64,000 nt of DNA, from the IMG/VR virus record IMGVR_UViG_3300037484_000374, positions 1 to 64,000 of that record, one strand, 5' to 3'. Positions 16,045-49,835 of the stretch are shown here, piece by piece (the stretch's first letter is position 1; each line of letters starts with the position of its first letter). The stretch comes from a virus. A model generated the notes under the pieces. The model did not search any database. It saw only the letters and a list, made by a program, of their open reading frames with translations, and was not told the origin of the DNA. The position numbers were made by a program, and so were the translations under genes.

Positions 16045-16740
16045 ATGAATCTCAATGATAGATTAAATATTTATATAAATGAGGGTGTGATTGCTCATGA
16101 TAAATCCACCCTCTACGATCTCAAAGCAAATGGTTACAGAATTGCTGATGTGTATTACCATAACAGTGTTAATGGTATATTGTCTGCATTGGCTGTAAAA
16201 ACCATGCTTAAAGTATATGGGATAGGTGTTATATGGTCTTCCCCTATTTTAACCGGTACAGCACCGCCAATGATCCAGAAAGCTATAAACAAAATTCTAC
16301 TGGTTATTGTAGATATTAACGGGGATTTGATGGATATTAAGATAAGTTCTGACACTGATGAATATGATCTCCAAGTGGATATACGTGACTATTTCTCTCC
16401 GAGCGATCTTGACACCATAAGAAACACAACTGATGATGATATTATTAGATATGGGTTCAGGCCCATTGATGTTCTAAGGTCTGCTTTTGGTACTGAGGGT
16501 ATACTTGATATTGAAAAAAACTATATGGCTATGGGATTAACAATCACCAAGGTTTTAGAAGAACTAAGAGGCAATGATAAGTTTATAAACAGTGTGGTGA
16601 TGGAGTCTGGGTCAGGTTTGCTGTCTCTATACGCAAACGTTGTATCTATTGCAAAAAGATTCGGCTACACCCCTCCTGAGAGAGACATAGCCGAGATAAT
16701 GGAAACTATTTATATTCAAATAGATGAAAGATTTATTTAG
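16045..16740 (+). CDS. CTS-leader protein, degenerate DHH-like fold
   Basis: IYINE leader; YYHNSVNGILSA and LVIVD echo DHH motifs I and II without the catalytic residues. Confidence 0.55.
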   Translation: MNLNDRLNIYINEGVIAHDKSTLYDLKANGYRIADVYYHNSVNGILSALAVKTMLKVYGIGVIWSSPILTGTAPPMIQKAINKILLVIVDINGDLMDIKISSDTDEYDLQVDIRDYFSPSDLDTIRNTTDDDIIRYGFRPIDVLRSAFGTEGILDIEKNYMAMGLTITKVLEELRGNDKFINSVVMESGSGLLSLYANVVSIAKRFGYTPPERDIAEIMETIYIQIDERFI

Positions 16741-18158
16741 TTTCTGTTATGTATTATAAATTCTTTTACTTTATTTAAACAGTGTTCTTTATTAGCAATC
16801 CAAATTTCTTCATCAATTACCATTAAATCAATACCCTTTTCTTTACATTGTTGTTTTTTAATAGAGTCACGTTTCTTTACATTTTTTAAAGAGTGCCAAT
16901 AAACACCATTAAACTCAATTGCCTTATTCAACTCTGGAATCCATAAATCCAGTTCAAGATTACAACCTGTTTCTGGATTGACAATCTGAGTCCTATCATT
17001 TGAAATTACATCACCATCATATAGTTCTTTTGTATATTCAAAAATTTCAATTTCTACTTTGGAAGATGTTGATTCAGCCCAGCAAATAGGACATCGAATA
17101 CCCTGCTGAAAGTCACCAAATCGTACTTTATATTCATGTCCTTTGTTACATCTTATTCTTAATTTGGTATTCGTGTTTTTGTATGTGTTACTTAAAAGAT
17201 AATATCCTTCTTTTTCAATTTGTTCTTTTACATATTCATAAGTAAGTTTTTTATTAGGAGAGCACTCAGGACACCTACAACCTGTTTGAAAACTACTCCA
17301 TACTACTTTATATTCATGTCCTTTTGAACATCTCAACTTTAATTTAGTATTTGCATTGGTATATTCTTTACTTAGTAATTCATATCCTTCTTTTTCAATT
17401 TGTTCTTTTACGAATTCATAAGTAAGTTTTTTAGTTCCAAAGCAAATCAAACATCTATATCCTTGTTGAAAATCTCCCCATGTTACTTTATATTCATGCC
17501 CCTCTGGACACTTTACTTTTAATTTAGATTGTGAGTTTTTATATATTTTGCTTAATAATTTATACCCAAATGATTCAATATATCCTTTTACAAAATCATA
17601 TGTTAATTTTTTCTTTCCTGAACATTCAAGACACCTAATACCATATTTAAAACCGCCAAAATTTACCTTATATTCATGGCCCTCTGGACATCTTACTTTT
17701 AATTTGGAATTTGCACCTATATATCCGCTACTTAATAATTCATATCCAAATGAGTCAATATATTCTTTGACGAACCCATATGTATATTTCTTTAGCCCAG
17801 CACATTCAGCACATCTATGTCCGTTTTTAAAATCATTAAACGTCACATAGTATTCGTGTTTTTTACTACATTTTACTTTTAATTTATTTTTATTATTTTT
17901 ATATGTCTTACTTAAAAGTTTATACCCTTCTTTTTCAATTTTCTCCTTTACAAATTCATATGTTAGTTTCTTTTTACCGGCACACTCAGAACATCTATGT
18001 CCTTGTTGGAAATTATCATATGTTGGATAGTATTCATGACCCTCTGGACACCTTACTTTTAATTTTTTTCTGTTATTTTTATATTCTTCACTTAAAAGAG
18101 CACACCCAAATGATTCGATATGCTCTTTTATATATTCATATGTTACTTTTTTATACAT
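16737..18158 (-). CDS. Free-standing putative homing endonuclease: six 60-aa Cx3H...Cx2C repeats plus Vsr/PD-(D/E)xK-like domain
   Basis: Repeats visible; C-terminal ELDLWIPELNKAIEFNGVYWH. Confidence 0.85.
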   Translation of the reverse strand: MYKKVTYEYIKEHIESFGCALLSEEYKNNRKKLKVRCPEGHEYYPTYDNFQQGHRCSECAGKKKLTYEFVKEKIEKEGYKLLSKTYKNNKNKLKVKCSKKHEYYVTFNDFKNGHRCAECAGLKKYTYGFVKEYIDSFGYELLSSGYIGANSKLKVRCPEGHEYKVNFGGFKYGIRCLECSGKKKLTYDFVKGYIESFGYKLLSKIYKNSQSKLKVKCPEGHEYKVTWGDFQQGYRCLICFGTKKLTYEFVKEQIEKEGYELLSKEYTNANTKLKLRCSKGHEYKVVWSSFQTGCRCPECSPNKKLTYEYVKEQIEKEGYYLLSNTYKNTNTKLRIRCNKGHEYKVRFGDFQQGIRCPICWAESTSSKVEIEIFEYTKELYDGDVISNDRTQIVNPETGCNLELDLWIPELNKAIEFNGVYWHSLKNVKKRDSIKKQQCKEKGIDLMVIDEEIWIANKEHCLNKVKEFIIHNRN

Positions 18159-18164
18159 TATAAT

Positions 18165-18977
18165 CTATTTGGTTTCTGTAGTGGATTCAATCACTGTCTC
18201 TTCTGCTTCAACCTGATCTTCATCTGATGATATATCAACAATCAATTCCTCTGTAGGGTTCGATTCCTCTATTACCGTCAACTCACCTATGTATCTAAAA
18301 ATGTCATCTTTGTATGTTGGGTGTTTACCACCAACATAATGCTTTAAGAGTTTTTTCCAATCTCCCTTATATTGTTTATGCAGGGTCTTCAAGATGTAAT
18401 CACCGGCAAGGATACTCTTCTGCCAATCATATAAGTCACGTTCTTCTGTAATACCTTTATTGGCCGCTATCAACTCTTTTGACCATGATTTCCACATTAC
18501 CTGCGTCAAACCTTTAGCATTTACTGGTGAAGTGGCGAACTGATCAAATGCTGATTCTCTTGCCATGAGAGCTATAAGTGTTTTTGGGTATTCTGCGTGT
18601 TTATAAGTGAAGTCAACCATCTCCTTACATAGCTTTAAAGGGTTTTTGGATGCTTTCTTATAAACCCAATCAACAAGTTTTGGGTTATATTTTGATGTCG
18701 TGCGCCACTCTAGCTCTTGTTGGAGCAATGTGATCTGAGTGACATACTTTGCTTCCATTTCTTGATATTTGGTATCGTTTCTCGCATCAATAACCATGCC
18801 GATCATATAAACTGCAACTGTAAAGGTTGTCATAACCATGACAATGGAGTATACCTTTTTTAGATTGATACCCCTTAAAAATATCCTTGTTTTGGTAACC
18901 GCACCGGAAAGGTATGGCTTTTTCGTTTCTGTAACTTGATTACTAATTTGACTACTAACAGGTTTGTTCTTTGACAT
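18165..18977 (-). CDS. Membrane-anchored lytic transglycosylase (SLT domain)
   Basis: ARESAFDQFATSPVNAKGLTQVM; N-terminal TM helix. Confidence 0.85.
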   Translation of the reverse strand: MSKNKPVSSQISNQVTETKKPYLSGAVTKTRIFLRGINLKKVYSIVMVMTTFTVAVYMIGMVIDARNDTKYQEMEAKYVTQITLLQQELEWRTTSKYNPKLVDWVYKKASKNPLKLCKEMVDFTYKHAEYPKTLIALMARESAFDQFATSPVNAKGLTQVMWKSWSKELIAANKGITEERDLYDWQKSILAGDYILKTLHKQYKGDWKKLLKHYVGGKHPTYKDDIFRYIGELTVIEESNPTEELIVDISSDEDQVEAEETVIESTTETK

Positions 18978-18994
18978 TTTGTACCTCTTACTAT

Positions 18995-19291: not shown

Positions 19292-19376
19292 GTTAAATAC
19301 CTCTCTTTATATATTTATCTAAAACGATTCCCGATCCCCCCTATATTTACTAATTATACCATCTTAAAATCTTTTG

Positions 19377-20048
19377 TCAACTATTTAATTTTGGATATGG
19401 TTTTATATCATATCGTAATTCTTTTCTGATCTCTTTTTTAAATTTCTTATCACCAATTATATAAACATATCTATGTTTAAGGGGTCTGTCTTTTAAATAG
19501 AAGTCATCACCGTATTTATCTTTAATTGCCTGTACTCTATTATCTACACCTCTGAACTCATCTGCTATGGTTTGGGAGTGTAAATGTTCTTTACCTTTAA
19601 TAACCCAATCAGTTCTTTTTTCAGACAGTCCACAATATAAAAAATTGGTGGCTTGATAAACATACCCTATGTGTTCTTGAGATGTATCAGAGTAACTAAT
19701 TATTATCCTTTTTTTAGGTAGCATTTTCAAACTTCTACCCACCAAAAAGCTGGCCTCATTTTTCCTGTTATATAATAGACATAACCTATTTAATTCAAGA
19801 ACATTGTTTTTATATTTATCACCAGCCAATCCACATCTTACATTATTTGTTGGTGGTGATCCATATGTTACAATTCCACATAACTCATTACCAACAAATA
19901 ATCCATATGAGTATGATATACTCGGCCATCTTTTTGCATAATGGATATTCATAATAAATGGCTCACAGTCTTGTCGAGATATCTCACCAACATCTTTTAC
20001 TGAGAGGTCGATTTCCCTGTCGAAGAAAGTATTAAGCATATCATTCAT
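19377..20048 (-). CDS. mom: Mom-family adenine-modifying GNAT enzyme
   Basis: HY...GIVTYG.P...ELNRL...NEASF...SL...IISYSD...HIGYVYQATNF.Y.G. Confidence 0.8.
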   Translation of the reverse strand: MNDMLNTFFDREIDLSVKDVGEISRQDCEPFIMNIHYAKRWPSISYSYGLFVGNELCGIVTYGSPPTNNVRCGLAGDKYKNNVLELNRLCLLYNRKNEASFLVGRSLKMLPKKRIIISYSDTSQEHIGYVYQATNFLYCGLSEKRTDWVIKGKEHLHSQTIADEFRGVDNRVQAIKDKYGDDFYLKDRPLKHRYVYIIGDKKFKKEIRKELRYDIKPYPKLNS

Positions 20049-20050
20049 TA

Positions 20051-26765: not shown

Positions 26766-27039
26766 ATGCCAAATAGTCACATACATGAATATGTAAAAGA
26801 ACAAATTGAAAATGAAGGATATAAACTTTTAGGTAAGGAATATAAAAATGTATTTACTAAATTAAAAATAAAATGTCCAGAGGGGCATGAATATAATGAC
26901 AATGTAAAAAGAAGAGATAAAAATAAAGAAACGGCAACGTGAAGAATTAGGTATTGATCTTATGATAATCCATGAGGAATTTTGGGTTATCAACAAAAGA
27001 AAATACTTGAATAAAATTATGAAGTTTGTAGAATTATAA
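26766..27039 (+). pseudogene. Internally deleted zinc-repeat endonuclease remnant
   Basis: HEYVKEQIENEGYKLL...CPEGHEY fused to a frameshifted family C-terminus (GIDLMII.EEFW). Confidence 0.85.
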
Positions 27040-30595: not shown

Positions 30596-30598
30596 ATA

Positions 30599-31174
30599 AT
30601 GGAAATATCTGGAAGAGTTAGAAATATTATCAAGAAATCGAAAGTAGAGCTTATCGATATACTTGAGAAATATAGCTGGGACGTTACCCTGTCAAAGCTG
30701 ATTATGTTACTTTCCCTTGTGTATTTTCCGGGGTCACAGGTAAAGTTTGAACCTATTGAGGAGGAAATACCATCTGATCAGGGTTTTTTCCCAATAGTAG
30801 AGATATATCTAAACGGTAATATAGTTGTGTATGTCAATAAAATTCTTGTGAAATACGTTACAATGTACCCAAAGAAAAGGAAATACTGGAATTCTTGGAA
30901 TGATATTGAGAACAATAGATTTTATACCGAACTTGCCGAGGCTATCCAGAAAGGTGAGATTTACAGAGCCAATCTTAAAAGGGTAGGGGATATCATACCG
31001 TTTCTTGATTCTTCGATGACAGTTCAGCAACACCTTGATTGGGGTGTTGAAGATTATATTTATGATGGAACTCCTGAGATGGAAAATCTATTTGATGTTT
31101 TCTTAGGAAAAGATAGTCCGATTACTAAGCTATTCAAAGATGGTGTTAAAAAGTTAAAGAAGAAAGCTGATTAA
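30599..31174 (+). CDS. Hypothetical protein
   Basis: Last ORF of the operon. Confidence 0.6.
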   Translation: MEISGRVRNIIKKSKVELIDILEKYSWDVTLSKLIMLLSLVYFPGSQVKFEPIEEEIPSDQGFFPIVEIYLNGNIVVYVNKILVKYVTMYPKKRKYWNSWNDIENNRFYTELAEAIQKGEIYRANLKRVGDIIPFLDSSMTVQQHLDWGVEDYIYDGTPEMENLFDVFLGKDSPITKLFKDGVKKLKKKAD

Positions 31175-32064
31175 TCAGCTTCTTTCAATTCGATATTATA
31201 GTTGTCACCCTCTGACAAGCTGACCTCATATATTTTAAAACCCTCGAAATTATAGTGTCTGAATCTAATATCAGCATGGTCTTTTAAGTATTTTACCTGA
31301 TCGCAAATATCCCAAATTTTTGAACCCACCTTACCGTCATCCTTCCTCAATGTTCTGCCTATTGATTGTAGGACTCTGATCTTGCTTTTTGAAGGACTTC
31401 CCATAATGAGGGTATCGAGACTCTTAATATTTACACCTACTTGGAAGATTGCGTATGTGGCGATCAGGATGATATTCTTTGACTCGTTTGTTTTCTTTCT
31501 CCACTGTTCTCTTATCTCTGCATCATCTTTACCGCTGATAAACTCTATGGTTCTATCTTTTAATTCTCTACTTTTAAGTAGAATTTCTTTCAGTACAGCC
31601 CCTTCTTTTTCAACTTTATCTACCAAAATAAGAACACTGGAATTTGTTTCATTGAGGATGTGTTTTATCAGACCAACACGGTATGGATTATTAAAGCATA
31701 TATCCTTGATCGTATTGTAGTCACCCTTGATCTTTTGTTTGTAATTGATGGTTACCATATTAACATCACATCCCGCAATGTAGCCGTGCTCATGGAGCCA
31801 TTTAGAGCCATATTCTTTAATTACTGGCCCAATGAATGATTTAACAGTCAGTTCATCGAGGCGAGATGGTGGCATCGTACCGGTAAACCCAAATCTGTAT
31901 TTTGCATTGATGGCGTGTTCAAGGACTGACTCTAAAATAGCCGCTTTGCAACCATGACAATTCGAAACAACCACACCATTTGCCGTATAATTGTTATTTT
32001 TGTCTATGTGTAGGTTATATACTTTTTTTGGTTTTTTTATTATTTTTCTTTTTATAAGTTTCAT
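31171..32064 (-). CDS. uvsW: Split-intein C-fragment (35 aa, 31960-32064) plus UvsW C-extein
   Basis: VYNLHIDKNNNYTANGVVVSN|CHG...GFTGT...GVNI...QSIGR.LR. Confidence 0.92.
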   Translation of the reverse strand: MKLIKRKIIKKPKKVYNLHIDKNNNYTANGVVVSNCHGCKAAILESVLEHAINAKYRFGFTGTMPPSRLDELTVKSFIGPVIKEYGSKWLHEHGYIAGCDVNMVTINYKQKIKGDYNTIKDICFNNPYRVGLIKHILNETNSSVLILVDKVEKEGAVLKEILLKSRELKDRTIEFISGKDDAEIREQWRKKTNESKNIILIATYAIFQVGVNIKSLDTLIMGSPSKSKIRVLQSIGRTLRKDDGKVGSKIWDICDQVKYLKDHADIRFRHYNFEGFKIYEVSLSEGDNYNIELKEAD

Positions 32065-32099
32065 ATGTCTTCTTTAGGTTATTAAATATATGATCGCTA

Positions 32100-32128
32100 A
32101 ATATATCATTATTTTTGTAAAATGTCAA
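32100..32128 (-). promoter_or_regulatory. Sigma70-like promoter between the UvsW halves
   Basis: TTGACA-N17-TATATT with TG extension; the -35 overlaps the TGA stop of the N-half. Confidence 0.6.
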
Positions 32129-34435: not shown

Positions 34436-34669
34436 CTATTCTGTTTTGTCTGATTCTTTCTTCATAAGAAGATATTCAAACTCTGAGAAGCAGAACATAT
34501 TCACAACACCGGCATCAACATTTTTAATAATCTGATACACAACGTATGTTATCTCTTCAATGACAACAATGGTGTTTGGTGGTGACACAAAGGATGCATT
34601 GATTTCTTCATAGAAAATCTGATTTGTTTTGGCATTAATATATCTTATAATTGTCATTTTATTCTCCAA
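34436..34669 (-). CDS. Hypothetical protein
   Basis: Coupled ORF. Confidence 0.55.
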   Translation of the reverse strand: MENKMTIIRYINAKTNQIFYEEINASFVSPPNTIVVIEEITYVVYQIIKNVDAGVVNMFCFSEFEYLLMKKESDKTE

Positions 34670-35528
34670 AAAATAAACTCATAGTCTCATGAGTGTTGTT
34701 TAGGATATACTCTCTGTTCATCGGCACCAATAATATATTCACTTTACTCAAGAAAAATTTATCATATTGTTTATCAAAATCAACTTCTACCTGAAACTCC
34801 TTTGGCCAATGGTGATAAGATACGGTGTCTATGTCGTATGGATTTTTCTTTATATATACAACCTTTACTTTATCACCCTCGTTAATTACCTCGTATTTAT
34901 TTTCTACTCCATGGTGTTTTAGTAGGAACCTGTAATTCCACACACCCTTTACATGCCAAGGTGTTCTTTTTATTTTCTCACCTGTACCGAGATATTTTTC
35001 AAGGTTCTTGACACCAATATTTGAACTGATATCCTCTATCTTGGCGTTTTTCATTACTCTTTTATATGTTGCTATTATATCCCTTATTTCAGTATCGTTA
35101 GCCCCTCGAAGGATCATTCCCAGAATATTTTTAAGAGCGTTCCTGAACACTGTAGGTGTCTCTGAGCGTATAATTTCGAGGCCGGTGACTTCTATCTTAT
35201 CACAATTAAAACCCTCTTCATTTACAACATTATAACCATACTTCTTTTTCTTGACAAACAGAATAGATTTACATACGATTTCCTGTTTAAATCCGATCTT
35301 GAAATCTTCAACAGCTGAGTTGTATGATATCTTCTGTGTTTCGTTGTACGCTCGATCTTCAACATATGATTCTATGATCTTTGATATTCTCAAAACAAGA
35401 TCACACTTTTCCATATCAGTGTGTTTATTCCACTGTTCGGGGGTGACACCTCTATTATATAGGAAATCCCGAACCCCTATAAAAAGCGAGTCAGTATCGA
35501 TGTAATAGATATAGTCATTCTCTTTCAT
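34659..35528 (-). CDS. gp43: Family B DNA polymerase C-terminal subunit (motif C, thumb)
   Basis: YIDTDS, KKKY, TGLEIIRSETP, WHVKG. Confidence 0.92.
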   Translation of the reverse strand: MKENDYIYYIDTDSLFIGVRDFLYNRGVTPEQWNKHTDMEKCDLVLRISKIIESYVEDRAYNETQKISYNSAVEDFKIGFKQEIVCKSILFVKKKKYGYNVVNEEGFNCDKIEVTGLEIIRSETPTVFRNALKNILGMILRGANDTEIRDIIATYKRVMKNAKIEDISSNIGVKNLEKYLGTGEKIKRTPWHVKGVWNYRFLLKHHGVENKYEVINEGDKVKVVYIKKNPYDIDTVSYHHWPKEFQVEVDFDKQYDKFFLSKVNILLVPMNREYILNNTHETMSLFFGE

Positions 35529-35911
35529 CTTACTGGAACCAACATGTCTATATTTCTATATATTAATTGACAAATATCGCTATGAACCAATGGATTTATC
35601 TCTTCCTCTGTCGTGTAAATGAAATATCTCTTTGATTCGAATTCGTATGAGAATCTTCTGTAATTAAACCCACATTTACCGTTTTTATATGATTTAATAT
35701 ACATTATCGGGGTTGTTTTGTATGGGGCATCATCCCATATACGACCGCTCATAGGGCCATCAATGAACAACCCAGTAGGTTGTTTTTTTTGTCTATTACT
35801 TGCGAAACCCATAATAATCCGAATAACAATGTAACCCATACAAATATACCATACTGGGTCGGTAACCATAATTTTTAGAAATTCAATCATGTTCTGTAAA
35901 AAATCTATCAT
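35525..35911 (-). CDS. Hypothetical membrane-anchored protein between the polymerase halves
   Basis: N-terminal hydrophobic segment; FIDGP motif. Confidence 0.6.
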   Translation of the reverse strand: MIDFLQNMIEFLKIMVTDPVWYICMGYIVIRIIMGFASNRQKKQPTGLFIDGPMSGRIWDDAPYKTTPIMYIKSYKNGKCGFNYRRFSYEFESKRYFIYTTEEEINPLVHSDICQLIYRNIDMLVPVR

Positions 35912-36109
35912 AATATAACCCCCATATTAAACCCTTTATTTTCTTAGATATATAATTAAATAACGTTATCATTCCTGTCCATAATAATCCGAATACCAAA
36001 CTGACCACCACAATAAACACCATCTTAATCTAAAATTTAGGATCGGTTATCATCCACACAAATGTACCACATAATTCTTTTAATGTTTCCAGTATCATAA
36101 CACTAACCT

Positions 36110-36469
36110 CTATTTAATTTTTTCATCAACTTCTTTAATTTCCTGTTCGATTCCTTCAAGACTTTTTGTATACCGATCAACACGTTGCTTGTATTTTTGC
36201 TTACCGGTATCGTCAAATTTGTCTTCGTTGTCTTCTAGTTGACGAGTTATCGCCTCTTTACGTAATTCTAATACCTGCCTTTGCTGTATCATGTCTCCAC
36301 GTTCACTATCCTTCTGAACAACAGTTATCTCAGAAGCAAGAGCGACATAGGTGACAACGTTCTCGGTGAACCACCATGTCCCAGCACCACCTATTACTAT
36401 TAATAATACCACAAAAACTGTCTTTTGTCCTAAATTATCTAACATAAATTTTAAAATTACTTTAACCAT
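36110..36469 (-). CDS. TM plus coiled-coil protein between the polymerase halves
   Basis: VFVVLLIVIGGAGTWWF followed by heptads. Confidence 0.65.
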   Translation of the reverse strand: MVKVILKFMLDNLGQKTVFVVLLIVIGGAGTWWFTENVVTYVALASEITVVQKDSERGDMIQQRQVLELRKEAITRQLEDNEDKFDDTGKQKYKQRVDRYTKSLEGIEQEIKEVDEKIK

Positions 36470-36655
36470 ACTAATCTCCCTTTTTTTATAATTCACAAAA
36501 CGGGCTGTGCTTACATGTCAACCGAGCGGGGCATTTTGTGCATCGATGAATTTTTATTCTCTTCGGTTTATTACGATCTTTAATCTTTTTTATTATAGCT
36601 ATAACTACTAAAACAACAAATGAAACATATTTTATAGCTATTTTAGATATACTTT

Positions 36656-37888
36656 TCATAGTATAAATTCCTTAATTTTTTCAAGACATTTTTCTTTGTT
36701 AAAATTCCACAAATTTTCATCTATTATTAAGAGATTAATATTATTTTCTTTACACTGTTGTTTTTTTATCTTGTCTCTTATTTTTCTTTTTGGTAATGAG
36801 TGCCAATAAACACCGTTGAATTCTATTGCTTTATTTAATTCTGGAAGCCATATATCCAGTTCAAGATTGAACCCTGTTTCTGGATTGACAATCTGAGTCC
36901 TATCATTGGATATAATTATATCATCATAAATGTTTTTGATAAATTCAAAAATTTCAATTTCAGCTTTTGATGATGTTGATTCATCATAGCATTTTGGACA
37001 TCGAATACCCTGTTTAAAACTATCCCACACCACTTTATACACATGACCTTTTGGGCATTTTACTTTTAATTTTGTATTTGAGTTTTTGTATTCTTTACTC
37101 AGTAATTTATATCCATCTTTCTCTATCTGTTCTTTGACAAATTCATGTGTAAGTTTCTTGTTTCCAGAACATTCCGAGCATCTTTGTCCATGATTAAAAC
37201 AATCATATACTACTTCATATTCATGATCCTTTGGACATTTTACTTTTAATTTATTTTTATTATTTTTATATGTCTTACTTAAAAGTTTATACCCTTCTTT
37301 TTCAATTTGTTCTTTGACAAATTCATGTGTAAGTTTCTTGTTTCCAGAACATTCCGAGCATCTATAACCTTGTTGGAAATCATTCCATTTTACCTTATAT
37401 TTATGTCCATTTGGACATATGGTTTTCAATTTAGTAAATGCGTTTTTATATTCTTTACTTAATAATTTATACCCTTCTTTTTCAATATATTCTTTTACAT
37501 ATTCATGTGTGAGTTTCTTCTTACCGGAACATTCAGGACATCTATTTCCCTGTTGAAAATGACCCCAGTTAACTTTATATTTATGTCCTTTAGAACACTT
37601 TACTTTCAATTTTGTTTGGGCATTAAAATATTCCTTACTTAATAATTTATACCCTTCTTTCTCGATCTGTTCCTTTACATACTCATATGTGAGTTTCTTC
37701 TTACCAGAACATTCAAGACATCTATTTCCCTGTTGAAAATTATTCCATGTTACACTCCATTCATGTCCATTTGAGCACCGAATTTTTAGTTTTGTATTAT
37801 TATTTTTATATTCCTTACTTAATAATTTATACCCTTCTTTTTCAATTTGATCTTTCACAGCCTTATATGTTAATTTTTTCAATCCCAT
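36656..37888 (-). CDS. Zinc-repeat (five repeats) putative homing endonuclease
   Basis: 180-nt repeats; ELDIWLPELNKAIEFNGVYWH; start overlaps the polymerase N-half stop. Confidence 0.85.
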   Translation of the reverse strand: MGLKKLTYKAVKDQIEKEGYKLLSKEYKNNNTKLKIRCSNGHEWSVTWNNFQQGNRCLECSGKKKLTYEYVKEQIEKEGYKLLSKEYFNAQTKLKVKCSKGHKYKVNWGHFQQGNRCPECSGKKKLTHEYVKEYIEKEGYKLLSKEYKNAFTKLKTICPNGHKYKVKWNDFQQGYRCSECSGNKKLTHEFVKEQIEKEGYKLLSKTYKNNKNKLKVKCPKDHEYEVVYDCFNHGQRCSECSGNKKLTHEFVKEQIEKDGYKLLSKEYKNSNTKLKVKCPKGHVYKVVWDSFKQGIRCPKCYDESTSSKAEIEIFEFIKNIYDDIIISNDRTQIVNPETGFNLELDIWLPELNKAIEFNGVYWHSLPKRKIRDKIKKQQCKENNINLLIIDENLWNFNKEKCLEKIKEFIL

Positions 37889-39747
37889 TACTTTTCTTTT
37901 ATCTCTTCTATAATACCAACCAATTCTGGTCTTATGTTAGGGTTATTTAATAGTCTGTTCACAAACATCTCACCTTCGAGAATGGTATTCCTTCCACATG
38001 AAGTGATGGCCTCTGAAATATTCACATTGAAATAACGAGAATATGGTACGGCTGTCACACCGAAACTCGCGTTTATTATCAATTTCAATGAATACTGTAA
38101 AGCATGTTTTTGAATTGACAACAACACAAGATTTGCTTTTTTTTCGGGGTCTTTTTCTTGTTTTGCTTCTTCTTTATATGTGAACTTATTACCCTTTTCA
38201 ACCTTTCTCTTCAAAAATATATTCTTAACAACAGCGGCATAAACACCTGTTGGTTTATTCATGAAAATAGAACCACATGGTGCTATGGCTAGAAGACCAT
38301 GCTCTAATGCCTTGTTGAATTTACTAAGTTTATCACCTTCATAATATTCAAATCCAGTATTTTTAAGAATATGAAATGGGGGAAATTGTTTTTTACGTAC
38401 ATATTGTATAACTATATTGTAGAATGGCCGACCATCCTCGCCTGTTGTATGAACACCTGTCTCTCTTTTAAATTCCTGTAGGTGCTCCTTTGTAAACCCA
38501 ACAACCCTTCCAAAGTATGTCTCAATGCTCATATTCAGAGTTATTATTGCAGTGGGGTAACTAGAGGTAATATCCAAATCAATAACCCATTCATGGAGTC
38601 CCTTGTTAGGTTCCTTTACAAATGCCGCCGGGAAGTATTCTTGAGACCCCCCATTAAATTCAGGGGCACATAGGTTATTTCTCCTGTAGTAGGTTATCAA
38701 CAAACCCTCAACAAGTTGTGTCTGACTACAATAGTTTTTCATTGGGTTTTTACATAAAAGACAAAGTGTTTCTATGAGAAAAATATAAGCCAGCTTCTTT
38801 TCAAGTTCTTGTACAATTCTACTATCGTTTATATTATACTCAACGTATAAGTCATGATTTTCATTATATAAATTACGCAATGTGTCGTAATCACTATAGT
38901 CAAGTTTCGCACCAACCTTCTCAAGCCTTGCAACATAATCGAGTTTGTGATTTTCAAGGTTGTGCTGTGTAAACCATTTATATATACTCATAAAATCAAG
39001 AATGGTAACACCTGCAATATCTATATTCCAATTATCGATATTATCCATTTTCCACATTTTAACCAGACCGATAGGTGATAATTTCTTATATAGTTTGGTA
39101 TTTGTTCCGAACAATTTCTGTGTTCTTCTGATAATATATGGAAGATCAAAGCCCCCCATGGGATTGTTTTTAATATCAGCGCAATAATTCCAGCCTGTCA
39201 TAACGTCACATGGATTTTCTCTCTTCCAAGTAAAATACCTTTCGAGTAAGTCCTTTTCGTCATTACATTTTACATATGTAACATCATCAACGTTTATCGC
39301 TCCACATGGTGTATATTTTTTGCATCCAAATACCTGCACACCTTTTGAATGTGCTATTGATATTAATGTGATTGGCCAAGCTGTTTCGTTGGTATTTGGG
39401 AATTCACCTGTAGAAAAAACTTCAATATCTTCATAGTGAATTTCAAGTTTCGGTGGTTGAATATCTGAATCTTCTATTTCGTAATATCTCTCGGCAAAGA
39501 ATTGAATTACAGGGAGAACCTTGTTTTCGTAACAAGAATTGGTATTCTGAAAATCATTATATGATCTATAAGAATCAAATTCCTTTCTTACAACAGGAGC
39601 ACCATCAATTGTTTTGATAACACTCTTATTGGTTTTCAAATAAACAAAGGGAGCCCACACTACATTGTCATAGAAATTCTCCCCGTTTATCTGTTCCCAG
39701 ACATGAACAATTGAATTTTGGTTGTCATAATATATATTTTTAATCAT
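37888..39747 (-). CDS. gp43: Family B DNA polymerase N-terminal subunit (3'-5' exonuclease, motifs A and B)
   Basis: DIE, TGWN..FDLPY, YNIND, DITSSYP, KLIINASFG; ends without intein. Confidence 0.92.
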   Translation of the reverse strand: MIKNIYYDNQNSIVHVWEQINGENFYDNVVWAPFVYLKTNKSVIKTIDGAPVVRKEFDSYRSYNDFQNTNSCYENKVLPVIQFFAERYYEIEDSDIQPPKLEIHYEDIEVFSTGEFPNTNETAWPITLISIAHSKGVQVFGCKKYTPCGAINVDDVTYVKCNDEKDLLERYFTWKRENPCDVMTGWNYCADIKNNPMGGFDLPYIIRRTQKLFGTNTKLYKKLSPIGLVKMWKMDNIDNWNIDIAGVTILDFMSIYKWFTQHNLENHKLDYVARLEKVGAKLDYSDYDTLRNLYNENHDLYVEYNINDSRIVQELEKKLAYIFLIETLCLLCKNPMKNYCSQTQLVEGLLITYYRRNNLCAPEFNGGSQEYFPAAFVKEPNKGLHEWVIDLDITSSYPTAIITLNMSIETYFGRVVGFTKEHLQEFKRETGVHTTGEDGRPFYNIVIQYVRKKQFPPFHILKNTGFEYYEGDKLSKFNKALEHGLLAIAPCGSIFMNKPTGVYAAVVKNIFLKRKVEKGNKFTYKEEAKQEKDPEKKANLVLLSIQKHALQYSLKLIINASFGVTAVPYSRYFNVNISEAITSCGRNTILEGEMFVNRLLNNPNIRPELVGIIEEIKEK

Positions 39748-43154: not shown

Positions 43155-43381
43155 AATGATGTCACCTGCAATTCCTTTTCTCTGATTGTTAGGCGACAGT
43201 GTAAATAATTTATATAATAGGTAACATCTTCTCTACTTCTCTTTCCCCAATCATAGATATAGACATATCGCTCAACATATTGTTTGGCCAACTTTAACTG
43301 ATCAATGTTGGTACAAGAATTTATAACCTTATCACATCTGTCAACCATATCCATTGTTCTTCTCTGTGTTATCCCGCACAT
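43151..43381 (-). CDS. Hypothetical protein (original copy of the duplicated gene)
   Basis: Identical to aa 1-76 of 44304-44567. Confidence 0.65.
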   Translation of the reverse strand: MCGITQRRTMDMVDRCDKVINSCTNIDQLKLAKQYVERYVYIYDWGKRSREDVTYYINYLHCRLTIREKELQVTSL

Positions 43382-43388
43382 ATCAGTT

Positions 43389-44303
43389 TTATATTGCCTT
43401 TTTGGACTTTAATTTAAACACAAAATTCATGAAGTTAATTTCTCTAATAACTCCCCTGCTATCGTTTATGTTCGCTTCCCCTAATTCAAGGATAGCAACC
43501 CAATCATTTTTAAAAACAGTCCCATCATTATTATCAGTGATTAGTTTATATATGTAAGTATATAATCCTGTGTAATTTATAACATTACTTCTAAGAATTC
43601 TCAGGACATTATCTGGATCACCCGACTTTATGGCCTTGACCACATCACCGAATACATCATTTGATGTTGTCCTAATCAATTTTTCTGACAGTTCACCGTT
43701 GATCACATTCTCTTTTAAAGTACCTACTGTGTCACGGATATCTGGATAGCATGTCTTTACGATTTGGGCAATTGATTTTGGGTTGAATTTTATACCCTCG
43801 CTTGTTAAAATCTTTACACAGTGCTTGTAGATTACATCCCCTGGTGGGTTATTGATTTCGATTACTCGGCATCTTGATTTCAACTCAGGCATTATTTTAT
43901 CACTGTAGTTACATGCAAAGATAAAACGAGTTGTTTCGATTACCTTTTCCATGAGGTCACGTAACATGGCCTGTGCCGACTGTGATAAATAATCAGCCTC
44001 GTTGATATACATAACTTTGAGTTCACTATCAAAACCCATCGCTTCTGCAAATGGTTTGATTTTGGAACGAACAATATCTATACCAGTTTCATCTGATCCA
44101 TTTATTCGGCAAAAGGTATTCTGCGAGGAATTTTTGTAGATATCAACAAATGTTCCTTTACCAACCCCAGGAGGCCCAACGAGTATGGTATTTGGTTGTT
44201 CTGCCAAAACCTTCTCTAACTGTGTCCTGACATCATCATTAAGAACCATATCATCTAAGCTGGTCGGATTATGTTTAACTTCCCATACATCTTTGTTTAT
44301 CAT
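43389..44303 (-). CDS. gp44: Clamp loader AAA+ subunit
   Basis: WEVKHNP, GPPGVGK, INGSDE, NEADYL..AQA.LR, SRC. Confidence 0.92.
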   Translation of the reverse strand: MINKDVWEVKHNPTSLDDMVLNDDVRTQLEKVLAEQPNTILVGPPGVGKGTFVDIYKNSSQNTFCRINGSDETGIDIVRSKIKPFAEAMGFDSELKVMYINEADYLSQSAQAMLRDLMEKVIETTRFIFACNYSDKIMPELKSRCRVIEINNPPGDVIYKHCVKILTSEGIKFNPKSIAQIVKTCYPDIRDTVGTLKENVINGELSEKLIRTTSNDVFGDVVKAIKSGDPDNVLRILRSNVINYTGLYTYIYKLITDNNDGTVFKNDWVAILELGEANINDSRGVIREINFMNFVFKLKSKKAI

Positions 44304-44567
44304 TTATTCCCCTCTCTTGTTTTTGTTTATTTTTTTCTTTAGGGATGTCACCTGCAATTCCTTTTCTCTGATTGTTAGGCGACAGTGTAAATAATTTATA
44401 TAATAGGTAACATCTTCTCTACTTCTCTTTCCCCAATCATAGATATAGACATATCGCTCAACATATTGTTTGGCCAACTTTAACTGATCAATGTTGGTAC
44501 AAGAATTTATAACCTTATCACATCTGTCAACCATATCCATTGTTCTTCTCTGTGTTATCCCGCACAT
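44304..44567 (-). CDS. Duplicated hypothetical protein fused to the HU C-terminal tail
   Basis: Ends KKKINKNKRGE, as HU does. Confidence 0.6.
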   Translation of the reverse strand: MCGITQRRTMDMVDRCDKVINSCTNIDQLKLAKQYVERYVYIYDWGKRSREDVTYYINYLHCRLTIREKELQVTSLKKKINKNKRGE

Positions 44568-44860
44568 ATCAGTTTTTCCCCTCTCTTGTTTTTGTTTATT
44601 TTTTTCTTTAGGGATGTTGCCGTTTTGAATATAATGGTATCACGATCAGGAACAGAAAACGTTTCACCAGTTTGTGGATTACGTGCCATTTTTCCTTTTC
44701 GTGTCTTGACCTCAAATCTCCCAAAGTCGATAATAGTTACATTTTCTTTTTGAACATTATCAATTATACATTCAAAGATTATATCAAAACACTCACGGGC
44801 AGACTTTACAGACATACCCACACTTTTTGATAGATGATTAATAATATCTGATTTCTTCAT
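44555..44860 (-). CDS. HU/IHF-family DNA-binding protein
   Basis: FGRFEV..RKG..ARNPQTGE...I.FK. Confidence 0.92.
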   Translation of the reverse strand: MKKSDIINHLSKSVGMSVKSARECFDIIFECIIDNVQKENVTIIDFGRFEVKTRKGKMARNPQTGETFSVPDRDTIIFKTATSLKKKINKNKRGEKLICAG

Positions 44861-45586: not shown

Positions 45587-46159
45587 ATGACTGAAAATGA
45601 TAATAAATACGCAGAAGACAAGACCGATCCAGAACTTAATCTATCAGCTTTAGATGAGCTATTTGATACCCTACCAAAAGAAGCACTCACAGAAGAAGAA
45701 TTCCAAAAAAGAGAAATCGAATCCATGAGAAAGGAATTAGATATTCTCCTTAAAGATAATTCAGACCCCGATGATATAATCCACCAAAATATAGAAAGAG
45801 CAAATAGATTACTTGATATTATAGAAACAAATGTGACAAAAGGAAAATCTTCTAACAGAACTTTTGAGGTTGCAGGTCAATTAATCACAGCTGTAACAGC
45901 GGCGGCGGCTTCCATTTCGGGTATGGGATATAATCAACAAGTATTAGACCAGAAATCAAGGGATTTGGAAAGAAAAGAAAAGGAACTTGATTTAAAGAGA
46001 ACAATCAAAACAGCTACAGGTAATCCTGATGAAACCGGTGATGTAAAAAATTTAACACAGAACAATTTAATATTTACTGATAGAGAGAGTTTATTAAGTT
46101 TTATTAATACTTCTAAGGATGAAGAAGCTGAACTTTTTCCTGTAAAGAAATTAACTTAA
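45587..46159 (+). CDS. gp16: Terminase small subunit
   Basis: RTFEVAGQLI...NNLIF; late promoter; upstream of terL. Confidence 0.7.
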   Translation: MTENDNKYAEDKTDPELNLSALDELFDTLPKEALTEEEFQKREIESMRKELDILLKDNSDPDDIIHQNIERANRLLDIIETNVTKGKSSNRTFEVAGQLITAVTAAAASISGMGYNQQVLDQKSRDLERKEKELDLKRTIKTATGNPDETGDVKNLTQNNLIFTDRESLLSFINTSKDEEAELFPVKKLT

Positions 46160-46235: not shown

Positions 46236-46330
46236 TTAGTTATTATAAATTTAGTATTTAAGAATTCTATTAAGTAGTTTATTAGTTATTATAAATTTAG
46301 TATTTAAGAATTCTATTAAGTAGTTTATTA
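46236..46330. repeat. 46-bp AT-rich perfect tandem duplication
   Basis: TTAGTTATTATAAATTTAGTATTTAAGAATTCTATTAAGTAGTTTA twice. Confidence 0.9.
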
Positions 46331-46535: not shown

Positions 46536-48776
46536 GTGGCTATCAAAAACTTCGTATTAGACACCAACGTAATAATTTCAAGTAAGGACGCTATAAAGAC
46601 AATTATGAACGGAAACGATGGCGGTGAAGCAAATAATATATTCATACCATATACGGTTTTGGAGGAATTAGACTGTCTTAAAATGAATACAAAACTCAGA
46701 CCAATGGTGTATGAGGCATTTGAACAATTAAAAGAGTATAAAGATCATATCAAATTTATAGGTAATAGAGAAAAGAAAACACCGGATAATAAAATACTGG
46801 ATGAAATTCGTGATGCCGAACTTGAACTTAATTTAGGCGATGAGAATACAATATTCTTAACAAATGATATCATGCTACAGATAAAAGCAGAGGCCGAGGG
46901 TATCAATCCACAGGAATTCAAAGATTCAAAACCATATGAATCCGAGAGTCAACAATGTGATGGCTTTGTAAACGTTGATGAGGGTGAAAAGTTTTTTCCG
47001 AACTGTTTCTACTGGCAAGATGGAAGGTTGATGTTTAATGGAGTAAAAGAAGTACACACTGTACCTGATCATGCACCATGGAAGATAACACCTAAAAGTT
47101 ATTACCAAAATGCCGCTATTGATCTGATGAAAAATGATGAAATTAACCTCGTTACGATTCAGTCAAGGGCCGGTCTTGGTAAAGCACAACCATTAGATGC
47201 CAAAATATTAACACCTAATGGATGGAAAAAAATGGGTGATTTACAAGTTGGTGATATGGTTATAAATTCACAAGGAGAACCGACAAAGGTTTTAACAATA
47301 CACCCACAAGGAGAAAAGGAAATATATAGAGTATTATTTAATGATAATAGTAGTACAGAATGTTGTGATGATCATTTATGGTTTGTTAGAAAAGAATATC
47401 ATAAATACCAAGTAAAAAAATTAAGAGATATAAAAGATAATCTATATAATGAAAAACGAAAAAGATTGAATTGGTTTATACCGACAGTATCACCAATAAA
47501 ATTCCAAAAAAAACCATTACCAATAAAACCATACTTGATGGGGGTTTTATTGGGTGATGGTGGAATGACAACAAGTAATGTAAGTATAACAACAGTAGAT
47601 AAAGAAATAATAGATCATTGTAGTGATATATTACCAGATGGGTTATATATCAAACATATATGTGAACACCAATATCATATTAACATGCTTGATAGAAAAA
47701 TTGGCGGTAAAAAAGATATTTTTACAAATATTATTAACAAAATACTATATGAATTAAAATTATTTAAACTGAAATCACATGAAAAATTTATACCAGTTGA
47801 TTATTTATATTCATCTATAGATGATAGGGTACAAATACTCAGAGGATTGATGGATACAGATAGTGGTATTCTTAAAGATAACAGAGTTGAATATCATACT
47901 TCTTCATCAAAATTAAGAGATGGTGTTATTTTTTTGGTGAGATCACTTGGAGGTAGGGCATATTTTAATAAAAAAACACCATATTATATCTATAATGGGA
48001 TGAAAAAACAAGGTAAGGAAAGCTATACTGTTAGAATAACATTACCATCTGATATTAACCCATTTTTCTTAAAAAGAAAGGTTAATATATATAATGGTTA
48101 TAAGAAATATCCACCATCAAGAGGAATAAAAGAAATAAAATATATTGGTAATAAAGAAGCACAATGTATCACGGTTGATTCAGATGACCATATGTATATC
48201 ACAGATGATTTTATCGTCACCCATAATTCATATATATCACTGGCCACGGCATTGGAACAGACATTCGAGAAAAAGAAATATGAGAAGATATACATCTTTA
48301 AAAATATAGTAAATATTGGACAGGGGTTGGGTTTCCTTCCAGGAAGTCTTGAGGATAAGATAGAACCATACACCAGATATATGGTATCATTAATTCAAAA
48401 ACTCAGTGGTGTCAGAAAATTGAGCGAGAGAATTATGGATGCTAATGGGGTTATTAATCCACATTACATCGAGATTCTTCCTCTGACATTTATCAGGGGT
48501 ATGAACATTGAAGATGCATTTGTAATCATCGATGAGACACAGAACATTTCTCGACAAGAAATGAGAGCACTTCTGACAAGAATGTGCGGTAATGTTAAGG
48601 TTTGTTGCATCGGGGATACGTCACAGGTCGATGCTATGTTTCTCAATGAAATGAATAACGCTCTTAACTGGACTGTTAAATTATGTAAAGGCCAAGAACA
48701 CTATGGTCATATAACCTTGAAAGGTAATAAATCAAGAGGCCCGATCACAGACATGGTTCTTAAAGTAGGATTATAA
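46536..48776 (+). CDS. phoH: PIN-PhoH protein containing an intein
   Basis: VLDTNV PIN start; RAGLGK|intein|S; GFLPG, RGMNI, IIDETQN, GDTSQVD. Confidence 0.92.
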   Translation: MAIKNFVLDTNVIISSKDAIKTIMNGNDGGEANNIFIPYTVLEELDCLKMNTKLRPMVYEAFEQLKEYKDHIKFIGNREKKTPDNKILDEIRDAELELNLGDENTIFLTNDIMLQIKAEAEGINPQEFKDSKPYESESQQCDGFVNVDEGEKFFPNCFYWQDGRLMFNGVKEVHTVPDHAPWKITPKSYYQNAAIDLMKNDEINLVTIQSRAGLGKAQPLDAKILTPNGWKKMGDLQVGDMVINSQGEPTKVLTIHPQGEKEIYRVLFNDNSSTECCDDHLWFVRKEYHKYQVKKLRDIKDNLYNEKRKRLNWFIPTVSPIKFQKKPLPIKPYLMGVLLGDGGMTTSNVSITTVDKEIIDHCSDILPDGLYIKHICEHQYHINMLDRKIGGKKDIFTNIINKILYELKLFKLKSHEKFIPVDYLYSSIDDRVQILRGLMDTDSGILKDNRVEYHTSSSKLRDGVIFLVRSLGGRAYFNKKTPYYIYNGMKKQGKESYTVRITLPSDINPFFLKRKVNIYNGYKKYPPSRGIKEIKYIGNKEAQCITVDSDDHMYITDDFIVTHNSYISLATALEQTFEKKKYEKIYIFKNIVNIGQGLGFLPGSLEDKIEPYTRYMVSLIQKLSGVRKLSERIMDANGVINPHYIEILPLTFIRGMNIEDAFVIIDETQNISRQEMRALLTRMCGNVKVCCIGDTSQVDAMFLNEMNNALNWTVKLCKGQEHYGHITLKGNKSRGPITDMVLKVGL
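47184..48227 (+). mobile_element. Ala1 class 3 intein with LAGLIDADG endonuclease (348 aa)
   Basis: AQPLDAK start; DHLW, AQCITV, IVTHN|S; GVLLGDG and RGLMDTD. Confidence 0.9.
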
Positions 48777-49835
48777 ATGCCAAAAAAACTAACATGTAAT
48801 CATGTGAAAAGAATGATCGAAAATTGTGATGGTTATATACTATTATCATCGGAATATATTAATAATCATTCAAAATTAAAAATTAGATGTCCTGATGGTC
48901 ATGAATATAAGGCAACTTATAATGATTTTCAAGCCGGTAATAGATGTCCTTTATGTGCTAAAAATAGAAAATTTACATATAATTTTATAAAGAAACATAT
49001 AACAAAAGAAGGATATATACTTTTAAGCGAAGATTATAAAGATACACATTCAAAATTAAAAATTAAATGCCCAAAACAACATATTTTTGAAATGGGTTTT
49101 AATTCATTTAAACATGGACAAAGATGTTCTGTTTGTTATGGAACACCAAAACATACATATGAATTTATCAAAGAGCATATAGAATATTCTGGATGTAAAC
49201 TTTTAAGTAAAGAATATAAAGGCAATAAAAAACATTTAAGAATTCAATGTAAGAATAATCACATATTTAAAATGAGATGGGACTGTTTTCAAAGAGGTCA
49301 GAGATGTAAAGAATGTAGTATTGATAATACAAGAATGAAACATGAGTATATAAAGGAACAATTTGAAAAGGAAGGTTATTATTTACTTAGCTGTAAGTAT
49401 AAGAATAATCATTCAAAATTAAAAGTTCAATGTCCTATTGGACATAAGTATATGACAGCATATCAAAGATGGTATAACGGTAATAGATGCCCTATTTGTT
49501 ATGCAGAAACAACATCATCAATACCAGAAAAAGAAGTATTTGAAATAGTTAAACAAATATATGATGGGGGTTTGATTGCTAACGATAGAACACAAATAAT
49601 TAATCCAAGTACAGGATGTGGTCTTGAGTTGGATGTATGGCTTCCAGAGTTAAGAAAAGCAATTGAGTTTAATGGTGTTTATTGGCACTCATCATACTAT
49701 ACTAAAAGAAAAGACAAAATAAAGAAACAACAATGTGAAGAAAAAGGTATTGATTTAATGATAATATACGATTGTGAATGGTTATATGGCAAAGAAAAAT
49801 GTCTAAATAAAATAAATAAATTCGTAGGATTATAA
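48777..49835 (+). CDS. Zinc-repeat (four repeats) putative homing endonuclease
   Basis: Same repeat and ELDVWLPELRKAIEFNGVYWH domain. Confidence 0.85.
   Translation: MPKKLTCNHVKRMIENCDGYILLSSEYINNHSKLKIRCPDGHEYKATYNDFQAGNRCPLCAKNRKFTYNFIKKHITKEGYILLSEDYKDTHSKLKIKCPKQHIFEMGFNSFKHGQRCSVCYGTPKHTYEFIKEHIEYSGCKLLSKEYKGNKKHLRIQCKNNHIFKMRWDCFQRGQRCKECSIDNTRMKHEYIKEQFEKEGYYLLSCKYKNNHSKLKVQCPIGHKYMTAYQRWYNGNRCPICYAETTSSIPEKEVFEIVKQIYDGGLIANDRTQIINPSTGCGLELDVWLPELRKAIEFNGVYWHSSYYTKRKDKIKKQQCEEKGIDLMIIYDCEWLYGKEKCLNKINKFVGL

Follow-up and report, generated by a model that had tools for sequence, protein, structure and literature searches.

The window, i.e., the whole stretch of 64,000 nucleotides analysed here, comes from a 171-kb record of a T4-like phage and holds three paralogous genes, each coding for a tandem array of zinc modules and a nuclease domain. 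These genes raise the question of what such proteins do in a phage genome and whether their modules read DNA one by one, as in the reprogrammable per-module code that the initial annotation put forward. The three open reading frames, with six, five and four modules and one Vsr-like domain each, are present as that annotation described them:

16737-18158, minus strand: paralog A, 473 aa, six zinc modules (17082-18158) and a Vsr-like nuclease domain (16737-17081)
36656-37888, minus strand: paralog B, 410 aa, five zinc modules (36989-37888) and a nuclease domain (36656-36988)
48777-49835, plus strand: paralog C, 352 aa, four zinc modules (48777-49499) and a nuclease domain (49500-49835)

Architecture and family membership

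In all three proteins, copies of a zinc module of 60 aa (C-x3-H…C-x2-C) are followed by a nuclease domain of ~110 aa. Module starts lie exactly 180 nt apart in both A and B, the spacing in C is 60/60/61 aa, and the module zinc ligands (C, H, C, C) are invariant. Module arrays carry a net charge of +5 to +34, and nuclease domains one of -1 to -6. In Pfam, A, B and C match CapR (PF21817) with 88.7, 96.8 and 46.3 bits, respectively, against a cutoff of 24.2, and DUF4379 (PF14311) and Zn_ribbon_Brz (PF23454) likewise score above cutoff; NCBIfam gives no match above its cutoffs. Matches to PHROG 559, 681 and 3339 (endonuclease or homing endonuclease) reach E-values down to 3e-103. The PHROG label 'HNH endonuclease' on these proteins is wrong. 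Relatives were found in 650 phage records. Proteins that match over their full length (33-37% identical, with 85-94% of the protein covered) occur in AR9, PBS1 and Campylobacter CP8 and PC5 and bear the annotation 'Hef-like homing endonuclease' or 'Hef71'; each of the Campylobacter phages has 13-21 matching places.

The nuclease domain resembles I-Bth0305I (PDB 3r3p) in sequence (E 0.0035), by profile (E 3.3e-6) and in fold (Foldseek probability 1.00, TM 0.78), and these matches agree in confirming the proposed Vsr/PD-(D/E)xK-like domain. The blocks E-L-D and A-I-E-F-N-G-x-Y-W-H are kept in all six intact copies of the record. The string D-x-H-D, and with it the strict EDxHD motif, is absent from all six nuclease domains, and the EDxHD motif region is left unaligned in the sequence and profile matches to 3r3p. 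No T5orf172 or GIY-YIG domain was matched in Pfam at E-values up to 1; where a NUMOD-type region might lie, N-terminal to the nuclease, Pfam shows only zinc modules. Homodimer prediction for the nuclease domain scored 0.15, short of the 0.42 mark.

Pfam, PHROG, PDB and annotated relatives thus agree with the earlier impression that these zinc-repeat nucleases recall Hef-like phage endonucleases. Judged from their sequences, A, B and C are members of the already described Hef-like homing endonuclease family, i.e., putative selfish phage enzymes. In this family, arrays of CapR/DUF4379/DUF723-like modules joined to an EDxHD/Vsr-like nuclease constitute homing endonucleases found in phage group I/II introns and as free-standing genes (PMC12350094). 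As in the proteins described here, modules of ~60 aa (three to five there, 3-6 in each intact copy here) are followed by a Vsr-like nuclease of ~100 aa, and the genes are multi-copy in T4-like phages; however, the copies here appear to be free-standing rather than intron-borne, one lies beside a split PolB gene, and the ligands are C-H-C-C. I-Bth0305I, the EDxHD prototype, has in common with these proteins the Vsr-like catalytic fold and the A-I-E-x-N-G-x-Y-W block and is likewise a selfish nuclease carried by a phage, whose DNA-binding region is separate and lies N-terminally, but it carries two NUMOD elements instead of zinc modules, has the literal EDxHD motif that is absent here, and is intron-encoded in recA (PMC3239194). 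The same type of zinc module is repeated in T5orf172/GIY-YIG enzymes of ICP1 and other phages, whose repeats and genes recombine and for which it has been hypothesised that modularity diversifies targets (PMC10448857, PMC8096241); the nuclease there is T5orf172, whereas here it is Vsr-like. The PLE repressor CapR, with CxxC…CxC ligands in contrast to C-H-C-C here, binds a specific promoter fragment, for which four cysteines are required (PMC8096241). The architecture was published earlier, as was the idea that the modules aim the nuclease and recombine (PMC12350094, PMC10448857, PMC8096241); that CapR-like repeats aim at DNA in a modular way has likewise been put forward as a hypothesis (PMC10448857, PMC12350094). 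For phage U5, Hef is cited as an active endonuclease that cleaves close to the locus of its own gene (as cited in PMC2988022 and PMC3322345).

Genomic settings and decayed copies

The following neighbouring genes and decayed copies define the settings of the family within the window:

18165-18977: SLT lytic-transglycosylase gene, with the free-standing paralog A directly downstream
37888-39747, minus strand: N-terminal part of PolB, 619 aa, with the exonuclease domain and motifs A/B
34659-35528, minus strand: C-terminal part of PolB, 289 aa, starting MKEND-YIYYIDTDS (motif C)
35529-37887, minus strand: insertion splitting PolB, 2.36 kb, with paralog B and four small ORFs
3151-3417, minus strand: decayed copy, one module joined via a deletion to a frameshifted nuclease tail
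26781-27030, plus strand: decayed copy, most of one module, a deletion and then a frameshifted nuclease C-terminus
51501-51722, plus strand: decayed copy, a nuclease-domain remnant with an in-frame stop, immediately downstream of terL

Paralog B lies inside a PolB gene that is split just before motif C, seven codons before YIDTDS, and this is a new detail. In relatives at 46-50% identity, PolB is a single contiguous protein of 864 aa. Each half is bounded by start and stop codons of its own, the overlaps with adjoining ORFs being ATGA and TAATG, and the ATG of B overlaps the stop codon of the N-terminal part. Of the four small ORFs of the insertion (46, 57, 128 and 128 aa), the three scanned against Pfam, those of 57, 128 and 128 aa, match no family. 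An essential replication gene is similarly divided into two separately translated ORFs, by an insertion with a free-standing endonuclease gene, in the mobE-split nrdA of Aeromonas phage Aeh1 and in the split gp43 of T4-related phages (cited in PMC2988022); in contrast to those cases, a Hef-like endonuclease is involved here, and four small ORFs without assigned function accompany it in the insertion.

Paralog C directly adjoins a phoH gene that contains an intein on one side and terL on the other, with no spacer. PHROG matches suggested that C splits terL, but this was rejected, since in Pfam the upstream 746-aa ORF is PIN + PhoH with a Hint/LAGLIDADG intein and the 518-aa ORF downstream of C is a complete TerL. 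At the terL locus, relatives whose TerL is 57% identical lack a copy. An intron around B or C found no support in Rfam, of which no family reaches its gathering score anywhere in the window. Scans for copy-less relatives with PolB-N, PolB-C, TerL, the SLT protein and B returned no close ones, only the same strain (99.7-99.8% nucleotide identity) or genomes at 46-57% protein identity; therefore, presence and absence are seen at long range only, and no target site can be named.

Across the 171-kb record, 18 family matches resolve into six intact genes and five remnants, i.e., three intact paralogs beyond A, B and C, and five decayed copies with deletions, frameshifts and stops. The six intact arrays comprise 25 modules within one genome. 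One of the paralogs outside the window, E, adjoins an HNH endonuclease gene.

It is probable that the six intact and five decayed copies are free-standing Hef-like homing endonuclease genes, i.e., selfish elements aimed by their arrays. The sequence itself shows the domain architecture, the family membership, the number and decay of the copies, their insertion contexts and the conversion tracts; DNA binding by these modules, cleavage, homing and specificity from a variable pole of the module are steps that we infer. For cleavage and homing, the decayed copies, the positions beside or within essential genes and the lack of copies at the same loci in distant relatives are indirect evidence. The strongly basic module array would bind a long asymmetric site in the DNA of a related phage that co-infects the cell and has no copy of the gene, the C-terminal nuclease would cut near the bound site, and recombinational repair would copy the endonuclease gene together with flanking markers into the cut genome. 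Differing module numbers and sequences would give each paralog its own target and hence its own locus, copies no longer under selection would decay, and homology-driven conversion among paralogs and repeats would generate new arrays. As found, the genes are a clear case, though an unremarkable one, of a selfish gene family that is common in phages. They are useful for annotation, given the PHROG label mentioned above, and as a compact natural data set with 25 intact modules, five decayed copies, mosaic conversion tracts and one PolB broken by a copy.

Variable positions, conversion tracts and the question of a code

The initial annotation described the variation among modules as clustered in two patches. 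Every patch-1 and patch-2 residue string that it listed was found in the module alignment, and the patches are indeed variable; however, per-column entropy shows that variation is not confined to them. The highest-entropy positions (29, 53, 12, 51, 57, 43, 2, 48, 30, 45, 47 and 11, in 445 modules from 117 relatives) place as much variation in the linker, on the outward side of helix 1, at exposed positions of the strands and in the second zinc knuckle as in the two patches. Judged by the hairpin topology in AF2 models, patch 1, which immediately precedes strand 2, and patch 2, which immediately follows strand 3, probably come together at a single pole opposite the zinc site, a further new detail. 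Searches with the module fold gave a best E of 0.43 in Foldseek against the PDB and, in a wide VIA-align search, a best Z of 3.9, to kinetoplastid mitoribosomal proteins and within noise; neither a solved relative of the fold nor a DNA complex was found by Foldseek or VIA-align.

A 74-bp block common to A and B had been taken as a sign of module exchange. The identity is exact (74/74) and ends on both sides:

17868-17941, minus strand: 74-nt tract in module A2, from helix 1 to the first zinc cysteine, with patch 1 inside and patch 2 outside
37235-37308, minus strand: partner tract of 74 nt in module B4

Modules A2 and B4 are ~81% identical overall and ~68% outside the tract (the latter by arithmetic from ~81%), and at their identity a 74-nt identical run is far beyond chance (order 1e-8 per pair, by our own estimate). 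A further tract of 77 nt joins B4 to module D1, outside the window. The exact inter-paralog tracts measure 119, 107, 77, 74, 63, 63, 62 and 56 nt; identical tracts of 107-119 nt lie in the nuclease domains, which are the most alike parts of the six paralogs. Exact tracts of 56-119 nt between paralogs, likewise a new detail, indicate that gene conversion is active. One conversion tract distinguishes two near-identical strains; the clustered change I275V/S278E/V287I moves the copy of C in strain L008 towards the sequence of other paralogs. Thus, exchange is supported in the looser sense that many exact tracts link the six paralogs, but the tracts are of sub-module length and disregard module boundaries. 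Clean module shuffling was rejected, as the module tree, with only three well-supported branches, supports only B2-D3 and the C3/E1/E2 group; a reversed module order between A and D is unsupported by the same tree.

It is within this context that a code must be judged. Like C2H2 arrays and TALE repeats, the modules are arranged in tandem with a near-fixed period and variable surface positions, in front of a nuclease, which zinc fingers and TALEs can likewise be used with; the modules here are, however, twice the size and draw on no small residue alphabet. To our knowledge, there is no module-to-base rule for these zinc modules. In a programmable code, each 60-aa module would read its own subsite through its patches, independently of its neighbours, and swaps would re-aim the nuclease predictably. 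The near-fixed period in relatives (60 aa in 161 of 326 neighbouring pairs, 61 aa in another 60), the range of 2 to 8 modules per protein across the 117 relatives and the expected meeting of both patches at one pole are consistent with this, and conversion tracts carry patch 1 between modules, although they also cut through modules. Positions 29 and 47 co-vary at ~3.8 sd, which also speaks for a code, whereas patch-2 position 46 co-varies with core position 12 and, on that sequence evidence, is probably structural rather than base-reading.

Patch codons have a dN/global dS of ~1.0-1.2, about neutral, with a global dN/dS of 0.45 for the 25 modules; relaxed constraint would explain this no less well than diversification. 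The patches show no significant positive selection in parsimony-based synonymous/non-synonymous counts, a crude test on a weakly resolved 25-module tree, in which only one site stood out nominally (p=0.046, uncorrected), and this reading was dropped. In 464 modules, 254 distinct patch-1 triplets, 345 distinct patch-2 quadruplets and 451 joint combinations occur; there is therefore no small residue alphabet, and a TALE-like small, reused set of specificity residues was not found among these modules. Positions outside the patches are equally variable, and the only characterised Vsr-like homing enzyme is most specific at its cleavage site rather than at distal contacts (PMC3239194). The proposed reprogrammable code was thus not borne out and is unproven, and we consider it unlikely that modules of this kind read DNA independently by such a rule. 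The corresponding broader picture, in which the pole formed by patches 1 and 2 reads a separable DNA subsite, arrays of 2-8 modules spell out targets and patchwise conversion re-aims the nucleases, appears doubtful to the same degree. If the modules did read DNA independently, they would be a small, zinc-stabilised DNA-targeting scaffold that is naturally linked to a nuclease, and separable-subsite reading, if true, would make them the third natural programmable DNA-recognition protein scaffold after zinc fingers and TALEs.

Two less likely readings: domesticated copies and non-reading arrays

With six intact copies in one genome, the catalytic motif being intact in each, some could be domesticated rather than purely selfish. 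Such copies would no longer home but would serve the phage in other ways, such as excluding competitors, cutting satellite or host DNA, or acting as repressors (compare PLE CapR and ICP1 Odn). The domestication of CapR-type and homing-endonuclease domains has precedents in phage-satellite conflict (PMC8096241, PMC10448857), and because B translationally abuts PolB-N and C abuts phoH/terL, both are probably expressed with essential genes. However, sites beside or inside conserved essential genes are also the classic homing pattern, the five decayed copies show that selection on the family has not been sustained, and PADLOC reports no defence family beyond a weak 'HEase' match. Domestication of some or all copies is therefore quite unlikely, and homing endonuclease genes remain the preferred reading of these copies.

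It is very unlikely that the repeats are a generic basic, zinc-stabilised spacer or clamp, with specificity in the nuclease and variable positions that are unconstrained surface: variable sites do evolve near the neutral rate, variability is spread across most exposed positions, and I-Bth0305I reads mainly 14 bp at the cut (PMC3239194), but CapR, which is built from this type of domain, recognises one specific 30-bp probe while leaving others unbound (PMC8096241), and the nuclease domains are the most alike, yet the genes occupy six unrelated loci. Since near-alike nucleases are found at such different places, differences in targeting would come mostly from the arrays, and it is likely that the modules aim the nuclease in a modular fashion.

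Module-array nucleases and their relatives

The three intact paralogs A, B and C lie exactly where the initial annotation placed them and carry the 6, 5 and 4 modules that it counted. Each consists of a head-to-tail array of ~60-aa zinc-binding modules followed by a ~110-aa C-terminal domain, with a repeat spacing of exactly 180 nt in A and B and of 60/60/61 aa in C. The window covers the opening 64 kb of an IMG/VR virus record of 170,951 bp that is ~71% complete; a search of the full record with B gave 18 matches, and three further intact paralogs (D, E and F) lie outside the window.

Intact paralogs and decayed copies in the virus record
16737-18158, minus strand: paralog A, 473 aa, 6 modules
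36656-37888, minus strand: paralog B, 410 aa, 5 modules
48777-49835, plus strand: paralog C, 352 aa, 4 modules
80199-81260, outside the window: paralog D, 4 modules
100516-101421, outside the window: paralog E, 3 modules
130523-131392, outside the window: paralog F, 3 modules
3151-3417: decayed copy
26781-27030: decayed copy
51501-51722: decayed copy, just after terL
~73080-73446: decayed copy
~135567-136071: decayed copy

When translated, the five decayed copies show one-module stumps that deletions have joined to nuclease tails with frameshifts or stops; in one copy a zinc histidine is lost. Intact and decayed copies side by side have the look of a selfish gene family that invades and then degenerates.

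The modules match the Pfam CapR homology domain PF21817 (88.7, 96.8 and 46.3 bits in A, B and C; threshold 24.2) as well as DUF4379 and the Brz zinc ribbon, and the ligands C-x3-H…C-x2-C are invariant throughout the 25 modules found in this genome and 445 from 117 relatives. Confident AlphaFold2 models (pLDDT 89.8 for the whole of E, 84.1 for the second module of B alone) predict a helix, a short strand, a loop and a β-hairpin with a zinc knuckle at its turn, followed by a short helix and a second knuckle. Co-variation of column pairs 13-34, 34-42, 12-46 and 34-49 is consistent with this packing; no convincing match to the module was found among solved structures. The C-terminal domain, annotated as Vsr-like, indeed resembles PDB 3r3p, the I-Bth0305I catalytic domain, in sequence (E 0.0035), profile (E 3.3e-6) and fold (Foldseek probability 1.00, TM 0.78), and all six intact paralogs keep E-L-D and A-I-E-F-N-G-x-Y-W-H. 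Since the literal EDxHD motif is absent from these six domains, we assign the proteins to the outgroup of Vsr-like enzymes reported in 2025 and not to the EDxHD family proper.

Relatives occur in 650 phage records (tblastn), with 13-21 matching places apiece in Campylobacter T4-like phages. Matches along the full length come from Bacillus phages AR9 and PBS1 and from Campylobacter phages; their annotation, 'Hef-like homing endonuclease' or 'Hef71', bears out the proposed likeness to Hef. Three PHROGs of endonucleases or homing endonucleases (559, 681 and 3339) also match, the lowest E being 3e-103; phrog_559 is labelled 'HNH', wrongly so for these proteins. Exactly the same architecture, three to five CapR/DUF4379/DUF723-like domains of ~60 aa each plus a ~100-aa EDxHD/Vsr-like domain, is described in PMC12350094, where such proteins are called 'a large unrecognized outgroup' and the repeats are proposed to add sequence specificity. 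CapR-type zinc domains are also repeated in T5orf172 homing endonucleases, in which the repeats recombine and, it is argued, their modularity would let targets diversify (PMC10448857). In gel shifts, CapR bound one specific promoter fragment and needed its four cysteines (PMC8096241). The Hef of phage U5 is reported, in citing passages of PMC2988022 and PMC3322345, to cut near its own locus. The main points already stand in the literature, and the genes add new members to a described family.

Sites of insertion

B sits between the two pieces of a family-B DNA polymerase gene (34659-39747). The N-part, 619 aa with the exonuclease domain and the polymerase domain's first half, ends at 37888, its stop codon overlapping the ATG of B, and the C-part (289 aa) starts with MKEND-YIYYIDTDS at 35528. 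The split lies seven codons before motif C (YIDTDS), and the 2.36-kb insertion holds B and four small ORFs (46, 57, 128 and 128 aa), the last three of which gave no Pfam family when scanned. In the nearest relatives compared (46-50% identity) PolB is a single 864-aa ORF, against which the N-part and the C-part abut except for one intervening codon. This is a case of genes in pieces, for which PMC2988022 cites work on Aeh1 nrdA and on the gp43 of some T4-related phages.

C lies without a spacer on either side between a PIN-PhoH gene and terL. The former (46536-48776) encodes a 746-aa PIN and PhoH-like ATPase with an intein (Hint at aa 231-302, LAGLIDADG_3 at aa 433-482; PhoH resumes at ~aa 565), and PHROG mislabels the intein part as terminase. 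The reading that C splits terL was rejected: terL is complete, and the error came from intein-containing PHROG profiles. Relatives whose TerL is 57% identical carry no copy at this place. Two distant relatives have TerL in three separated pieces (contigs L015, 2573-7059, and L019, 4822-7939), and one gap in L019 matches the intein part of the PhoH ORF. In this phage group, selfish elements appear to have landed in TerL repeatedly.

A comes after an SLT-domain gene and D after an SbcC-like gene, and F is located among glycosyltransferase genes. An HNH endonuclease gene (genome 99690-100202; 15690-16202 of the stretch L002) lies ~300 bp upstream of E, separated from it by a 100-aa ORF (100236-100538); together they form a small island of homing endonuclease genes. 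Among the relatives compared, which are either the same phage at 99.7-99.8% or 46-57% identical, no close copy-less allele was found.

Recombination and the proposed per-module code

The 74-bp block noted earlier (17868-17941 = 37235-37308) joins the second module of A to the fourth of B, is identical at 74/74 positions, ends abruptly on both sides, and includes the first variable patch (positions 28-30) but not the second (45-48). Other exact tracts, in a background of 62-82% identity, measure 119 nt (A and D, nuclease), 107 nt (C and D, nuclease), 77 nt (B4 and D1), 63 nt (A2 with D1 and with D4), 62 nt (B2 and D3) and 56 nt (within B). On two contigs of the same phage from another sample (99.7-99.8% identity), C carries the clustered changes I275V, S278E and V287I, which match the other paralogs and look like a recent conversion. 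B differs from its near-identical counterpart by two bases only. Module exchange, as first suggested, thus holds insofar as many exact tracts link the paralogs, but not as tidy cassette exchange: because the tracts are shorter than one module and cut through modules, the process is homology-driven patch conversion that makes chimeric modules.

It had further been proposed that variation clusters in the two patches and that each module reads its own DNA subsite, as in zinc fingers or TALEs. Every quoted patch string is present in the module alignment, and both patches rank among the most variable positions by entropy; however, the linker, helix positions 11-12 and 15-16, exposed strand positions, and 51, 53 and 57 are equally variable. 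A crude parsimony count over 25 modules gave a dN/dS of ~1.0-1.2 at patch codons against 0.45 globally, with only one site nominally above neutral (p=0.046, uncorrected), values compatible with relaxed constraint or diversification alike. In the models, the end of patch 1 coincides with the start of strand 2, and patch 2 begins at the end of strand 3, so in the hairpin the patches should come together at the opposite pole from the zinc site. A modest co-variation links positions 29 and 47, and position 46, which co-varies with core position 12, is probably structural. The 464 distinct modules hold 254 patch-1 triplets, 345 patch-2 quadruplets and 451 joint combinations, a diversity quite unlike the few repeat-variable residues of TALEs. 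Of 326 neighbouring module pairs, 221 have a period of 60-61 aa, and the net charge of the arrays is +5 to +34; both features fit a DNA-tracking array but do not show that modules are independent. Nearly identical nuclease domains stand at six unrelated loci, so that most of the difference in targeting must stem from the arrays, and the published hypothesis that the arrays would aim the nuclease is reasonable here. A programmable per-module code seems improbable.

Genomic setting

The phage is a distant relative of T4, judged by a TerL with T4-type Terminase_6N/6C domains and by PolB, whose best cultured matches are T4-like cyanophages (32% identity); G+C is 30-37% across the window. A Mom-like DNA modification protein (phrog_1384, E 6e-53) is encoded at 19377-20048; modification of the phage DNA is therefore possible and could bear on how nucleases target it. 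The helicase ORF at 32125-33099 runs from a DExH box (…VDEC) into ~100 aa of intein N-terminal splicing sequence and a stop, and the adjacent ORF at 31171-32064 is the remainder of the helicase, and the region as a whole (31171-33099) has the look of a split intein. A perfect 233-bp direct repeat (43158-43390 and 44344-44576) brackets the clamp-loader gene (43389-44303), with a further 51-nt repeat, 96% identical, at 44298-44348 and 44567-44617; the duplication is either genuine or an artefact of assembly. In the intergenic region between a candidate small terminase gene (45587-46159) and phoH, a 46-bp sequence is perfectly duplicated in tandem (46236-46327).
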